Positions 19,540 through 64,000 are shown, counted from the stretch's first letter. The stretch is 64,000 nt of DNA from a virus (IMGVR_UViG_3300045988_090963), one strand, 5' to 3'. Notes: generated from the sequence alone by a model not told the origin. Program-made: numbers and translations.

Positions 19540-20394
19540 ATGGGATATAGTATCAAAAAACATAGTCTCTATTCTTATGTTCAAATTGTAACAATTCCCT
19601 TCACAGACATTGAAAAAATTGACTTTGCCTTATGCAATCAACCGACGGAAACTCCAGATGCTTATTATAAAAGACAGGCTACTAAACCAGATATTATTAC
19701 TAATGGAGGTTTCTTTGCCATGAATAATGGCAACACTTGCTTTAGTTATAAAGACGAAGGAACTGTTATTTAGTCTGATTTTCGTCATGGAGTTGCAATT
19801 AGCGGCAATAAAACACTTATATATACAACATTAAAAGATTATGAAACCGCTAGAGATTTTATCGCAGCTTATCCTGCATTAATTGTAGATAGCAAAAAAG
19901 TAGTTATAACAGATGGAAAAGAATTAGATTATAAAGCCCGCAGGACTTGTATTGGATGGAATAAAAATAATTATTATATTGTAACCGTAGATTCTCCAGG
20001 TCTTGTTTATGCTGCCCTATAGCAAATTTTTCTTGAATTGAAAGTAGAATATGCTATTAATTTAGATGGAGGCGGATCTACTAGATTACTAATAGATGGG
20101 AAAAGAAAAACTTCTCAAATTTATGCAAGACCAGTTGATAATGTAATGTGTGTATATTTTAAGAAAGAACAAGAGGTAGTTCTTTACAGAGTTCAAGTAG
20201 GAGCATTTCTATCTAAAACCAATGCAGAGAATATGTTAAAGGAATTGGAAGAGAAAGGATTTAGCGGGTATGTCAAGAAAGTAGGAATTTTTTATAAAGT
20301 TCAATTAGGTGCTTTCTCTGTGAAATTAAATGCAGAAAGACTAAAAGATAAATTAAAATCTGCTGGATATAGCTCTTTCATTACAAAAAAATAA
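19540..20394 (+). CDS. phosphodiester glycosidase (NAGPA-like) with C-terminal SPOR domain; 2 in-frame TAG
   Basis: DGGGST motif; tandem SPOR-like VQVGAF...GY..K / VQLGAFS repeats. The domain is continuous across the TAGs at 19774 and 20020. Confidence 0.55.
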
Positions 20395-20396
20395 AA

Positions 20397-21806
20397 ATGA
20401 CTAATGCTCAAATTATTTGGAAATACTTTAAAGGCAAAGGTTTTAGTGATTGCGGAATTGCCGGTTTAATGGGTAATCTTTATGCCGAAAGTGGTCTTAA
20501 TTCTATTAACTTATAGAACACCTATGAAAAAAAATTAAAAATGACCGACGCAGGATATACCTCCGCAGTTGATGATGGAAGGTATAAAAACTTTGTAAAA
20601 GATGGGGCGGGATATGGATTGGCTCAATGGACATTTTGGAGCAGAAAACAAAATTTGCTTTAGTTCTGTCAAAGTCGAGGTAAATCCATTGGAGATTTAA
20701 ATACTCAATTAGATTTTTTATATTAGGAGTTAATTACAAGTTTTTCTAGTTTAGTTAAAATTTTGATTTCTGCCACTTCTGTCACAGAAGCCTCTACCGC
20801 AGTATTACTCTAGTTTGAAAGACCTTCAGACTAGAGTTTTTCTATGCAACAAAAGAGAGCTAATTATGGTCAATAGTATTATAATAAATTTGCTAACATT
20901 TCAAATGTAATTGAAGGAGGTAATAAAATGAAATATAGCGATAGCAATAAACCACTTCAATGTATGATGACAAATAGCACTTGCTATAAACAAACACGCA
21001 CCATGCAAGTTAAAGGAATCTTATGGCATAGTACTGGTGCAAATAATCCTAATTTAAAAAGATATGTATAGCCAAGCGATAATGATCCTAACTACACCAG
21101 TTTAATAAATAAATTAGGAAAAAATACTAGCAAGAATGACTGGAATCATATATCTGTTCAAGCTGGATTAAACTGTTGGATTGGTAAATTGGCTGATGGA
21201 ACAGTAACAACAGTATAGACAATGCCATGGAATTATCGTCCTTGGGGATGCGGTTCTGGGTCTAAAGGTTCTTGTAATAATGGATGGATTCAGTTTGAAA
21301 TTTGCGAAGATGGATTAAATGATGCAAATTATTTTAACAAAATTTATGAAGAGGCTTGTCAAATTACTGCTTATTTATGTAAAATGTATAACATAAATCC
21401 ATTGGGAACCACTACTTTAAATGGTATCACCGTTCCGACTATTTTATGTCATGCTGATAGTCACAAGCTAGGATTAGGATCTAATCATGCAGATGTAAAC
21501 CATTGGTTTCCAAAATTTGGGAAAAGCATGGAAACCGCAAGAACAGATGTTTATAATTTAATGTCAAATATCTAGGAGGATGATGAAGATATGACTGACG
21601 AGAAATTCGCTGAACTTATGAATACTTGGCTTACTAATAAAGCTAATGAAAAAGAAACTTGGGGCACCGATAATCTTGAATGGGCTAAAGCGAATGGGAT
21701 TATGGCTGGAGACAGTGCTGGAAGAATGATGCCAAATAAATTCTGTACTAGATTAGAAACTGTAACTATGTTAAGAAGATTGGCTGAAAAGCTGGGTTTA
21801 AAATGA
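20397..21806 (+). CDS. multi-module endolysin, 9 in-frame TAG
   Basis: Three modules in one frame with no TAA/TGA until 21804: (1) Phage_lysozyme2-like N-module (GIAGLMGNLYAESG...GYGLAQWTF..R...QLDFL..FERP...RANYGQ.YY); (2) Amidase_2/PGRP module (ILWHSTGA...CHADSHKLG); (3) C-terminal SLH-like cell-wall-binding module (W..DNLEWAKANGIMAGDSAGRMMPNKFCTRLETVTMLRRL). Strong internal RBS and ATG at 20929 could give a second product (amidase-SLH). Confidence 0.55.
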
Positions 21807-22138
21807 AAAAATTAGAATTTTCCAAAAAACTTATAAATGATATTCGTATGTTATTATGGGTCGTGACTGTGTCAGGTATCCTTTTGGCATTTATGTGTGT
21901 TTATATGGGATATTTAGGAACCCTTCCATGGATTAGTGCTCTTGTTGGTCTACCATGGAGCGCCCACGGAGTAGTTTGTTCTTTTTATTTAGCAATGGCT
22001 AAATCAGATCACAAAAAGGGCGGCATTACTTATGACCTAGCTTTAAAAGAAACTGAATTCAATTCTGCATATAACATCCCCGCAGAAGATTTTTCAGCCT
22101 CTAATGATATTCCCATTGATCTCGATGGTCCTATTTAA
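21803..22138 (+). CDS. holin-like protein (2 TM plus charged C-tail)
   Basis: Overlaps the endolysin stop; two hydrophobic helices. Confidence 0.45.
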   Translation: MKKLEFSKKLINDIRMLLWVVTVSGILLAFMCVYMGYLGTLPWISALVGLPWSAHGVVCSFYLAMAKSDHKKGGITYDLALKETEFNSAYNIPAEDFSASNDIPIDLDGPI

Positions 22139-22141
22139 TAT

Positions 22142-22185
22142 AAAGGCTTAATGAGTTAAATACTCATTAAGCCTTTATTTGTTTG
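22142..22185 (+). terminator. rho-independent terminator (AAAGGCTTAATGAG..CTCATTAAGCCTTT)
   Basis: 14-bp stem plus T-rich tail; promoter at 22210. Confidence 0.7.
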
Positions 22186-61867: not shown

Positions 61868-62303
61868 AAATATAATTCTATTTGCAGTTGGAGGAACTCT
61901 ATATTACGGTATAGAGTTCCTCTATAAAACTTTTATCAGCTTTGGAACTTGTCATTGGTCTATGTTCTTATTGGGCGGCTTATGCTTTTTATTAATAGGA
62001 CTAATGAATGAGAACGTTCTTTGGGAAGAATCTATTCTTACTCAAGGAGTAAAAGGCTCTTTAATCATAACTGCTTTAGAATTAATCTTTGGTCTAGTAT
62101 TAAATGTAAAACTAGGCTTAGGTATTTGGGATTATTCTCACGTTCCATTGAATTTTATGGGGTAGATTTGTTTACCATTCTCTATCGCCTGGTTCTTTTT
62201 AAGCCTTTTGGCAATAGTATTAGACGACTACCTAAGATGGAAATGGTTTGGAGAAGAAAAACCGCATTATCATTTATATAGTAAACCTCCTTGCGAGAAA
62301 TAA
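61845..62303 (+). CDS. polytopic membrane protein (1 TAG)
   Basis: 4 TM helices; continues past the TAG at 62163. Confidence 0.4.
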
Positions 62304-62349
62304 AAAAAATGGGGAGAACCTTGAAATTAAGGTTCTCCCCATTTTTTTT
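62304..62349. terminator. bidirectional terminator (A-run GGGGAGAACC..GGTTCTCCCC T-run)
   Basis: 10-bp stem flanked by A8 and T8 between convergent genes. Confidence 0.75.
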
Positions 62350-63130
62350 ATTTTACATCAATGATAATAATAGCAATATCATTTGTTGGTTTTTCTTTTG
62401 TATAAAAGGTAATTCCAACCCCAACTGATGCATCAGCGTGATCAATTTTACTATACTCTTCAAGATTAGAAGTATAACTAATAATAGGTGGCACATTACC
62501 TGCTTTTCCGCAAGTTAAAGAAGTATTGGAATAAGTATATGTATACATATCTTCATTTAATACCCAACCTGATGCAGAAAGAGTTGCTGGATAAGCTGCC
62601 GTAGTACTTCCACTAATCTAGTTATCTGTTTCCAATTTGCTATACACATCTAAATTAGTTCTCGCCCCTGCTGCATTAATTGCCCCAGTTCCACCAACTG
62701 AAATTGGAAGCGTTCCAAATTGCGGAGCGCCAGCTGTAGCGGCAAATAAAGCGCCAGTTCCTTGCAATCCTGTTACACCATTCTCGCTATTTCCGATAAC
62801 AACCTAACCAGCCTCAATTTCAACCATCTTTACCGCATTAGTTCCATTACCAATTAATAAAGCATTTACAGTTAGACTATTATGTCCAGTTCCGCCCTGA
62901 GCTACAGTGGCAGTCATATTTTTAAGAAAAATATCATCAATATCAATCTCAGTAATATCATTCTTTAGAACTTGAGCAGCATAGGCATTTACCTGCAAAC
63001 GCCCACCTTCTTCATTACTAATATCAATAAAGAGATTTCCTTTATCTTCTGTGAAATAAGCGTATCCTTCATGAAGAGGTACACTATTCAAATTATCTTC
63101 TGGTCCTCGAAAAATCTTAAATAAAGCCAT
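62348..63130 (-). CDS. tail fibre protein (2 TAG)
   Basis: RBS AAGGAGGGCC; ATVAQGGTGHNSLTVNALLIGNGT fibre-like motif; the two track fragments are in the same frame. Confidence 0.5.
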
Positions 63131-63163
63131 TTTAGGCCCTCCTTTATACTCTCTAAATATAAA

Positions 63164-64000
63164 TTAAGGTATTAAATCACTAAAACTTCCCCAAGATAAC
63201 AACTCTTCTATCTATTCGGCAGAATATGTCTATCTATCTTTATTTGTAATAGCTCCACCGATTAAAGTGTTGATATAATGAACGCTATAAGTTTTATTTG
63301 TTACCTCTCCACCATCTTCATTATTATAATCATTATCAATAAGGTTAGCAATACCTCCGGTTAGTTGAACTCTTCCCCATACTCCATCGGCTGCTTTATA
63401 ATACCAATAAGAAGTTTCCTAATTAGTCTCATATTCAACCCAAGTAATAGAGAAAATATCCTCTGCGCTGATTTCTCCATCGTAATTTTCTTCGATGTAA
63501 TTTACGCCATTCTATAAAGAATCCTTAATTGTTTCAGTTTCGTTAATAGTGTAACTTTTAACTATTTTAAGAGCTTCTCCAACAGGACCTTTTAAGTTTC
63601 CTTTGTTCTTAACCCATGTTCCATTAGAGCCTAATGAATAAATATCTCCTGTATCAGTATTTAAATACAGATCTCCTGTTTTAGCTCCATCAACAGTAAC
63701 ATTTAAAGATGTATCAGAAACAGTTAATCCAGCAAATAATTTAGATCCTCTTGGAATCTAGAAATCAAGATTTACTGTATCAGAAGAAATAATCTTACTA
63801 GAGACAGATCCCTCTTCATCAATTCCTATAAAATCAAAAGAAACTCCGTATTTAACCGCGGATGGCAGCCCAAAGACAAGTTTCCAAGCGGTTTCTTCTG
63901 TATTAGTAAATTCTCTTACTACAGTAGGTGCAGTTGGTTCATACCCGCTACCGCCATTTGTGTAAGGATCTAATTTTGTTACTTCTATTTCAGGCAATGG
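63164..64000 (-). CDS. structural (tail) protein, 5'-partial at the window edge (5 TAG)
   Basis: Frame open from the window end to TAA at 63164-63166; strand direction and the downstream tail-fibre gene suggest a late structural operon. Confidence 0.4.

Follow-up and report, generated by a model that had tools for sequence, protein, structure and literature searches.

A TAG codon apparently read as glutamine is distributed gene by gene in a phage from human-gut assemblies

Earlier accounts of stop-codon recoding in phages are reportedly those of Ivanova et al. 2014 and Yutin et al. 2021. In the model of Borges et al. (bioRxiv 10.1101/2021.08.26.457843), translation early in infection follows the host code and a later change of code allows the late proteins to be made. 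Here we describe the distribution of in-frame TAG codons in a stretch of 64,000 nucleotides of phage DNA (IMGVR_UViG_3300045988_090963; 34% GC; hereafter the window), together with the suppressor tRNA of anticodon CUA, tRNA(CUA), that is encoded elsewhere in the same genome. Both the phenomenon and the hypothesis were already published by Borges et al., and this phage adds a lineage in which recoding is heavier. What is new here is incremental: TAG-free genes for the probable bulk virion proteins, a mosaic at the level of single genes, polymorphism evidence for selection and the absence of a theta-ribozyme match.

Like the phages of Borges et al., this one has in-frame TAG in structural and lysis genes, other genes that are compatible with the standard code and a suppressor tRNA of its own. 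Their strongly recoded homing endonuclease inside early/replication genes is echoed here by TAG-dense genes for DNA-cutting enzymes. Unlike in those phages, recoding is not strongest in the lysis genes, and it is not modular but proceeds gene by gene within tight gene strings, the genes for the probable capsid and tail-tube proteins being TAG-free. A further difference is that the annotated parts of the genome showed neither a release-factor gene nor one for an aminoacyl-tRNA synthetase, the open reading frames (ORFs) outside the window having been scanned only partly against Pfam.

The human-gut phage phAss-1 (proposed Phassvirus; Babkin et al. 2023, PMC10607447; OQ749652) has a genome of ~136 kb in which TAG is reassigned to glutamine. 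It shares with the present phage this reassignment, many tRNAs including a tRNA-Sup(CTA), a long tape-measure protein and the lack of a dedicated synthetase. The capsid-candidate proteins are 52% identical, and proteins overall 31–58%. One suppressor tRNA is found here and three in phAss-1, and late genes are more heavily recoded here (TerL 13/23 vs 2/29, portal 10/23 vs 1/32). The described members of Phassvirus share 80–86% nucleotide identity, a similarity that is not reached in this case; megablast of 23 kb of the window against phage records, OQ749652 included, gave zero matches. The GenBank annotation of phAss-1 consists of standard-code fragments labelled hypothetical and was of no help in naming late genes.

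Two coding regimes also share one genome, as here, in crAss-like phages whose late block is TAG-recoded (Peters et al. 2022, PMC9523058; Mgcod, 10.1101/2022.06.29.495998), and for which metaproteomics has confirmed the reading of TAG as glutamine (PMC9523058). The regimes of crAss-like phages form contiguous blocks, whereas we find an interleaved mosaic, in another lineage with another probable host. Block-wise dual coding (isocoding blocks) does not describe this genome, as single TAG-dense genes stand among TAG-free ones and the dense structural module includes TAG-free genes. Kienbeck et al. 2024 (PMC10879173) proposed that a theta-ribozyme-associated suppressor tRNA triggers late-gene translation by accumulating against release factor 1 (RF1). 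A phage tRNA(CUA) is common to those systems and ours; here it is adjoined by no ribozyme family match, its CCA is encoded, and a ribosome-binding site (RBS) and ORF begin within ~20 nt of its 3' end. The Rfam search for a theta (HDV-like) ribozyme beside it (E ≤ 0.1; presence of a theta model in Rfam 15 unverified) gave tRNA matches only.

By protein comparison, the phage is a distant relative of phAss-1 and of SPbeta/EF1-like phages. In DnaE it comes closest, among annotated phages, to the Enterococcus EF1/VRE9-like and SPbeta-like groups (~40% amino-acid identity), which share with it the YorF and YorH families, syntenic with SPbeta-like phages in its replication module, and a genome of ~130–140 kb. 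As far as is known, other EF1/VRE9-like and SPbeta-like phages use the standard code. Enterococcus phage EF1 is described as lacking stop-codon recoding (Babkin et al., PMC10607447).

Reading of TAG and its distribution among genes

We delimited 81 genes in the window, in agreement with independent TAG-reading gene calls except for a few start codons; Pfam and PHROG searches bore out the gene names of the preliminary description. These genes contain 115 in-frame TAGs, and 47 of the 81 contain none. With TAG as a sense codon, 93% of the region from 19.5 to 64 kb falls in open frames of 100 codons or more, compared with 66% otherwise; over the first 19.5 kb, coverage barely moves (from 91% to 93%).

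Sequence comparisons indicate that TAG is read as glutamine, i.e., that part of the genome uses genetic code 15. At codon sites where TAG varies among 96–99% identical strains, the alternative is CAA or CAG at 36 of 44, many of these requiring two base changes. Five of the eight exceptions, where TAG is replaced by a codon other than glutamine, fall in the target gene of a diversity-generating retroelement (DGR). In relatives at ~58% protein identity, the TAGs of the window align with glutamine or TAG at 29 of 63 sites, a profile that matches that of genuine CAA/CAG codons (141 of 329 in the same relatives). Pfam matches run across six to nine TAGs in the endolysin and RuvC genes, and the RecJ gene, with its 13 TAGs, is matched from end to end by orthologs. 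One may ask whether the TAG-interrupted genes are pseudogenes, or truly end at TAG in the standard code. Apart from the phAss-1 record, annotated as fragments, this is a formal possibility. We rejected it, and it can hardly be right: domains and orthology continue past as many as 13 TAGs in one gene, and past 108 in that for the tape measure, TAG swaps with glutamine codons, and a cognate tRNA is present. If TAG is glutamine and is read by the phage tRNA(CUA), full-length products of the TAG-bearing genes would therefore depend on that tRNA, a need that is entailed if the host uses the standard code.

The preliminary description of this DNA held that TAG is unevenly partitioned among genes, and this is borne out. 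Counting TAG as a fraction of glutamine-type codons (CAA, CAG or TAG), we found 2 of 193 in genes 1–26, 57 of 370 between 19.5 and 51.3 kb and 56 of 177 between 51.3 and 64 kb (Fisher p = 3e-9 and 4e-18, respectively, against genes 1–26). The heterogeneity chi-square of TAG among glutamine-type codons is 248, whereas 20,000 binomial simulations gave a mean of 74 and a maximum of 133. The TAG share reaches 39–69% in the endolysin, GIY-YIG, RecJ and RuvC genes. Base composition was considered as a cause of the partition and rejected: out-of-frame TAGs number 12.9 per kb in TAG-free genes and 16.5 per kb in TAG-rich genes, and because they are about equally common in both classes, the depletion is specific to the reading frame. 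The 81 genes end in TAA (61) or TGA (20) and never in TAG, which is true by construction of the gene set. A TAG lies 12 or fewer codons from the stop in only six genes, in one of which (g57, codon 112) it swaps with CAA among strains.

After the genes had been delimited, TAG density was not uniform, and the recount agreed with the earlier per-gene figures within the uncertainty of start codons. The genes said to have no TAG (those for the MVP-like protein, NAD enzymes, Thg1, Pnk, phosphatases, GyrB-like and GyrA-like subunits, DnaE and primase-like protein) indeed have none, and the counts for DnaB (2) and NrdD (1) were recovered, as were those for endolysin (9), NAGPA-SPOR (2), RuvC (9), P/Q-rich protein (9) and the DGR reverse transcriptase (3). 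Six TAGs in the serine recombinase are obtained once the GTG start at 55466 is adopted, and 13 in RecJ with the TTG start at 37022. The eight of GIY-YIG stand with the longer call and fall to five with the shorter one at 29266. For the tail-fibre genes we count two to five rather than three to five, and for the DGR target seven to nine, depending on the start, where eight had been given.

The boundary between the two classes is not positional. Along the rightward arm of the genome, a small-ORF region (nearly all TAG-free) is followed by the tRNA array, a TAG-free block, a strong terminator, two lysis genes and the replication module, and within the latter part TAG-dense genes stand singly between TAG-free neighbors (g28, g37, g48 and g61, at spacings of −4 to +42 nt). 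For instance, g28/g29 and g60/g61 overlap by 4 nt, and g47/g48 are 3 nt apart. The TAG-dense genes of this arm (endolysin, GIY-YIG, RecJ, RuvC) are thus probably co-transcribed with TAG-free neighbors, and the distinction would therefore act at translation, gene by gene. The features of this arm within the window are as follows.

99..19486, plus strand: TAG-free block g01–g26, with genes for an MVP-like protein, RNA repair, NAD salvage, phosphatases, SPFH and PhoH
19490..19517, plus strand: terminator-like 12-bp hairpin that closes the TAG-free block, directly ahead of the lysis genes
19540..20394, plus strand: NAGPA and SPOR protein g27, 2 TAGs among 10 glutamine-type codons
20397..21806, plus strand: endolysin g28 (Phage_lysozyme2 and Amidase_2, weak SLH match), 9 of 23, the Pfam domains extending across TAG positions; overlaps g29 by 4 nt
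21803..28998, plus strand: replication genes g29–g36 (RNase H, GyrB-like, GyrA-like, ATP-dependent ligase) with a single TAG, at codon 5 of the small ORF g35; gyrase subunits total 0 of 37, and ligase also has none
29041..29952, plus strand: GIY-YIG endonuclease g37, 8 TAGs (5 from start 29266), abutted on both sides by TAG-free genes
33889..35442, plus strand: DnaB-like helicase g44, 2 of 21
37022..38773, plus strand: RecJ-like exonuclease g48, TTG start after an AAGGAG RBS, 13 of 28; 3 nt after TAG-free g47
38813..39580, plus strand: Phage_lysozyme2-domain protein g49, 0 of 12
41133..45014, plus strand: DnaE-like polymerase g52, 0 of 53
45603..47816, plus strand: NrdD g54, 1 of 30, at a position that swaps with CAA/CAG among strains
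50278..50757, plus strand: RuvC-like resolvase g61, 9 of 13; overlaps the TAG-free dUTPase gene by 4 nt
50830..51261, plus strand: membrane protein g62, 4 of 9

Selection on TAG and the structural module

Three observations show that the partition is under selection: the pattern of polymorphism among close strains, and the persistence of the partition both in relatives and in phAss-1. In TAG-free genes of close strains, 7 sites alternate between TAG and CAR (CAA or CAG) and 37 between CAA and CAG, versus 55 and 21, respectively, in TAG-rich genes (Fisher p = 1.5e-9). Relative to CAA/CAG polymorphisms, TAG polymorphisms are ~14-fold rarer in the TAG-free genes. TAG thus arises readily and is purged from these genes by purifying selection. 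The partition extends to relatives at ~58% identity, where DnaE has 0 TAGs among 40–41 glutamine-type codons and the primase-like gene 0 among 9, while RecJ has 3–4 TAGs, RuvC 4–6 and the holin 2–5; in phAss-1, orthologs of the capsid trio and tail tube are TAG-free. CAA and CAG number 253 and 104 in the TAG-free genes; the TAG-rich genes of the window have 140 CAA, 19 CAG and 102 TAG. With a similar AT bias acting on the change from CAG to TAG, a TAG share of ~40–50% would be expected without any positive selection. As the share in unconstrained genes is thus about that of a mutational equilibrium, the selected feature would be the avoidance of TAG, and the TAGs of late genes need not be adaptive "gates".

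TAG-free genes could also have been acquired recently from standard-code sources, in which case TAG density would be a clock rather than a means of control. The first 19.5 kb does stand out, with a GC content of 35–39% against 30–34% for most of the remaining window, with CAG at 44% of CAA plus CAG against 18–25% elsewhere, and with accessory metabolic genes. Two observations make this account very improbable. At 50–58% divergence, no TAG occurs in the core replisome genes syntenic with SPbeta-like phages or in the genes of the probable capsid and tail-tube proteins, and turnover between TAG and CAR is fast among near-identical strains, yet is depleted as stated above in the TAG-free genes.

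Most structural genes lie outside the window. The window is the reverse complement of the final 64 kb of the ENA scaffold OBRE15-1_scaffold_56 (137,070 bp), and the same phage is present in IMG/VR as UViG_3300045988_084596 (146,360 bp), giving a genome size of ~137–146 kb. Through the latter record we read ~97% of the genome, all but ~4 kb (contig 53.7–57.9 kb). The structural module is on the opposite strand and meets the plus-strand genes convergently at ~51.3 kb in the window. Outside the window it contains 287 TAG, 210 CAA and 69 CAG, so that TAG is the commonest glutamine-type codon (51%), and the tape-measure gene alone has 108.

Five genes inside this dense module contain no TAG among 37 glutamine-type codons (p ~1e-11 at the local rate). 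They stand at the positions of capsid and tail-tube genes and probably include those for the major capsid and tail-tube proteins. One encodes a protein of 350 aa and comes after portal-like and scaffold-like genes. This protein has no match in Pfam, nor in PDB sequence and profile searches. Its AlphaFold model is of low confidence (pLDDT 57.6), and the top Foldseek matches of this model are HK97-fold encapsulins (E = 0.01–0.05), with weaker matches to phage capsids. Another, of 463 aa, matches a "virion structural protein" PHROG and precedes the chaperone and tape-measure genes. TAG-free genes for bulk virion proteins would point to a cost of TAG in yield, as expected if suppression competes with RF1. 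Early and late are labels drawn here from function and position only. The statement that late genes are TAG-rich therefore stands for much of the late module, at 51%, and does not extend to the genes that probably encode capsid and tail tube.

Outside the structural module, TAG-dense genes mostly encode DNA-cutting or lytic enzymes. The enrichment of such functions (RuvC, RecJ, GIY-YIG, the ORF at L168:6020-6967 described below, recombinase, endolysin) could mean that recoding is mainly a barrier that blocks the expression of late or toxic genes outside the phage's own productive infection, scheduling not being its purpose. The settings envisaged are capture by the host, co-infecting standard-code phages or satellites, and a lysogen; for prophages, a similar proposal is made by Borges et al. 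The contrast between TAG-free capsid and tail-tube genes and dense terminase, portal and tape-measure genes is left unexplained by such a barrier. In addition, no evidence of integration was found, the matches in genome collections being only phage-sized contigs binned into metagenome-assembled genomes (MAGs). We consider the barrier very improbable.

The suppressor tRNA and the control of TAG-bearing genes

The suppressor tRNA supposed in the preliminary description exists, although outside the window: no tRNA gene occurs within the 64 kb. The contig L013, which has 10 mismatches to the window over 10,380 bases (99.9% identical) and reaches 9.9 kb upstream, contains a tRNA of anticodon CUA at L013:6988-7063 (76 nt, plus strand), 2.9 kb upstream of window position 1, sharing the strand of the TAG-free block. 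This tRNA matches the Rfam tRNA model with 59.8 bits and is third from last in an array of ~29 tRNAs that also includes tRNA-Gln(UUG) and tRNA-Gln(CUG). No second CUA tRNA was found in ~97% of the genome, and no transfer-messenger RNA (tmRNA) in the parts of this phage's genome that were read. In tRNA(CUA), U1 stands opposite U72 (C1 in L044), with G73 and a CCA that is encoded; the tRNA-Gln genes of the same phage have A1-U72. By the identity rules of E. coli GlnRS, the weak 1-72 pair, G73 and U35 fit glutamine. The closest paralog in the array is tRNA-Trp (71%), and glutamine identity is therefore not settled by the tRNA sequence alone.

A perfect TTGACA-17-TATAAT site lies ~440 nt upstream of tRNA(CUA). 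Scans for consensus promoters did not exceed shuffled sequences (38 vs 32.8 in L013; 70 vs 75 in window 1–20 kb) and thus cannot sort genes into early and late; isolated strong sites and terminators are all that merit mention. The small ORFs flanking tRNA(CUA), and most of the small-ORF region upstream, are TAG-free. Among the tRNAs is one dense ORF. Relatives with a ~52–61% identical AAA protein carry instead a CUA tRNA of 91 nt, at a different array position and with a long insertion in the variable region; its U1/U72/G73 ends and anticodon loop are unchanged. The loci of the ~61% relatives contain few TAG codons, too few to assign the amino acid of these tRNAs. In several relatives, the array also includes a tmRNA gene, with tag peptides such as DNNYFDSHMAA.

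L168:6020-6967: ORF of 315 aa among the tRNAs, with repeated DLTGQRFGRL motifs and an endonuclease-like C-terminus; 10 TAGs among 17 glutamine-type codons, with TAG-free neighbors
L046:2340-2430, L047:394-484, L048:1205-1295, L051:3231-3321, L055:2768-2858 and L057:2552-2642: CUA tRNAs of 91 nt
L066 (L066:17375-17546) and L067: tandem CUA tRNAs of 75 nt and 97 nt
L044:5616-5931, L046:5122-5467, L047:3167-3510, L051:5813-6157 and L055:5528-5872: tmRNA genes in relatives

The best overall explanation, which we consider likely, is a phage that uses code 15 in part, in which the TAG-free genes are under selection and the others need the suppressor tRNA. A single phage tRNA(CUA) would translate TAG as glutamine. 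Selection would keep free of TAG the genes that need unmodified host machinery (the small-ORF region, the block of anti-defence, RNA-repair and NAD genes, and the core replisome), as well as those whose products are likely needed in the largest amounts (probable capsid, tail tube). Elsewhere, TAG would drift to about half of the glutamine-type codons. Endolysin, holin, RuvC, RecJ, GIY-YIG and recombinase, and likewise the terminase, portal, tape-measure and baseplate proteins, would be made in full length only once the suppressor tRNA outcompetes RF1. Such control would act per gene and post-transcriptionally, because TAG-dense genes are packed in the same gene strings as TAG-free ones. The comparisons above show the recoding to glutamine, the cognate tRNA and the selection against TAG; from these we infer that the host uses the standard code, that suppression competes with RF1 and that TAG-bearing genes are delayed or attenuated. 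Any delay would have to come from accumulation of the tRNA against RF1.

Several observations weigh against this explanation. The tRNA(CUA) gene lies in a TAG-free, early-looking region, so that the tRNA may be available almost from the start and cause little delay. Three genes of 353–445 aa just upstream of it contain three to five TAGs, and some genes of replication and nucleotide metabolism have one or two (DnaB, helicase g51, NrdD, NrdG, Gmk, ThyX). The assignment of capsid and tail tube, which is part of the explanation, draws on synteny, the PHROG match and weak fold matches of a low-confidence model. Finally, the lysis genes are not specially enriched in TAG, a preference that belongs to the model of Borges et al.: they are recoded below the late-module mean of 51%, with TAG shares of 39% (endolysin), 29% (holin) and 20% (NAGPA-SPOR), and g49, with its lysozyme domain, is an exception to the rule that muralytic genes are TAG-gated.

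The main rival is a pure effect of dosage; ancestry, barrier and artefact are weaker. The tRNA would be present from the start of infection, TAG would be leaky and slow and be purged according to the required yield, and there would be no temporal switch. This accounts for the most abundant virion proteins being TAG-free inside a module with 51% TAG, for the position of tRNA(CUA) in a region that looks early and has matches to consensus promoters of host type, and for a TAG share of tolerant genes that would fit mutational equilibrium. Yield is not an obvious explanation for the low-copy Thg1-like protein, phosphatases, NadE and PhoH, nor for DnaE (0 of 53) and gyrase (0 of 37), all of which are TAG-free, and we give dosage a minor, if appreciable, chance.

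Alternatively, TAG density may be a translational rheostat for each gene rather than a two-state switch, possibly with accessory factors for the suppressor tRNA, which we regard as unlikely. TAG load may then be tuned to how late and how sparingly a product should appear, being nil in the replisome, early anti-defence and bulk virion genes, intermediate in lysis genes and highest in nucleases and low-copy virion parts. Two proteins of the TAG-free block could be considered as accessory factors. By speculation, the YqeY-like protein is a candidate helper for glutamine charging by the transamidation route; of 50,697 phage records, just 3 have a homolog, and phAss-1, EF1 and SPbeta are without one. 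The Thg1 family comprises enzymes known for repair and editing of tRNA 5' ends, and the Thg1-like polymerase might serve in the 5'-end maturation of the U1/U72 suppressor tRNA.

10245-10694: YqeY-like free-standing protein (PF09424, related to the GatB tail domain), in the TAG-free block
14259-15113: Thg1-like 3'-5' polymerase, identified by Pfam

Gene content, relatives and significance

The TAG-free block includes a gene for a protein of 813 aa (396-2837) with shoulder and repeat domains of the major vault protein. It is adjoined by a gene for a DUF2828/DUF7788 protein of 506 aa (L013:8366-9886), the two forming a vault-like pair encoded by a phage. An RNA-repair-like set (window 3878-8647 and 14259-16270) lies next to the large tRNA array and includes an RlaP-like nucleotidyltransferase, an RNA ligase, the Thg1-like protein, an AAA_33/Pnk-like kinase and several metallophosphatases; RlaP-like, RNA ligase, Thg1 and Pnk are the RNA-repair genes within g01–g26. 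A cluster for NAD salvage or reconstitution (window 8895-13454) comprises a nicotinamidase-like protein (isochorismatase), a PRPP-synthetase-like phosphoribosyltransferase, a NAMPT-like enzyme and NAD synthase. Phage pathways for NAD+ reconstitution have been reported as counter-defence, and the cluster resembles these. The sole TAG of the RNA-ligase gene, one of the two TAGs in genes 1–26, is a strain polymorphism and not a glutamine codon, and the ligase of this strain is either truncated or carries a change from tryptophan to glutamine under suppression.

8345..8347, plus strand: TAG at codon 323 of the RNA-ligase gene g11; TGG (Trp) in L013 and L015

The minus-strand late cluster lies beyond the convergence point, and a complete-looking DGR cassette on the plus strand (57.1–62.3 kb) sits inserted within the minus-strand structural module. 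Two genes of the cluster are TAG-poor among TAG-rich neighbors. They match only PHROGs without assigned function (phrog_20016, phrog_16490), and g66 is rich in Gly, Asn and Gln and has CCC/CC motifs and an N-terminal segment that is hydrophobic and may span the membrane. One strain contig, L005, is otherwise syntenic but lacks the gene for the serine recombinase, a presence/absence polymorphism.

51276..56889, minus strand: late cluster g63–g73 (holin, serine recombinase, P/Q-rich proteins, tail-fibre-like genes)
52212..53568, minus strand: TAG-poor g65 and g66, 0 of 6 and 1 of 26
54402-54791, minus strand: holin, 2 TAGs
54843-55466, minus strand: serine recombinase, GTG start upstream of the YARVSS motif, 6 TAGs
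within 51276..56889, minus strand: P/Q-rich proteins g67 and g68, with 5 and 9 TAGs, and tail-fibre-like g72 and g73
57344..61867, plus strand: DGR cassette, with target g74 (Big_3/DUF6273, 7 TAGs), two repeat copies, reverse transcriptase g77 and g78 (3 TAGs)
58856-58958 and 59579-59681: 103-nt direct repeat (80% identity), taken as the variable repeat (VR), at the 3' end of the target gene, and the template repeat (TR), respectively
59988-61205, plus strand: RVT_1 reverse transcriptase g77, 3 TAGs
62348..64000, minus strand: tail-fibre genes g80 (2 TAGs) and g81 (5 inside the window)

At full length, g81 encodes 636 aa with 13 TAGs, and the region opens the heavily recoded structural module.

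Exact protein look-ups matched contigs of 130–147 kb in many human-gut assemblies. The lineage is widespread: 1,129 blocks of the assembly collection contain its PhoH protein. In two assemblies that are independent of each other (ERZ1748944 NODE_772 and OBRE15-1 scaffold_56), the sequence stops exactly at window position 1, where others continue through; the shared contig end may reflect a break in assembly, a repeat or the end of the genome. The only hint of a host is the binning of two phage-sized contigs with Oscillospiraceae and Eubacterium MAGs, which weakly suggests Clostridia.

Recoded phages are mis-annotated by standard pipelines, the phAss-1 record being a string of fragments. In the present lineage, the many near-identical strains make selection on the reassigned codon directly measurable. 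The published model is sharpened by these data: it is the absence of TAG that is selected, this selection extends to the probable bulk virion proteins, and control would operate gene by gene. If the host were cultured, the phage would be a convenient Gram-positive system in which to ask whether a suppressor tRNA times or doses the late proteins.

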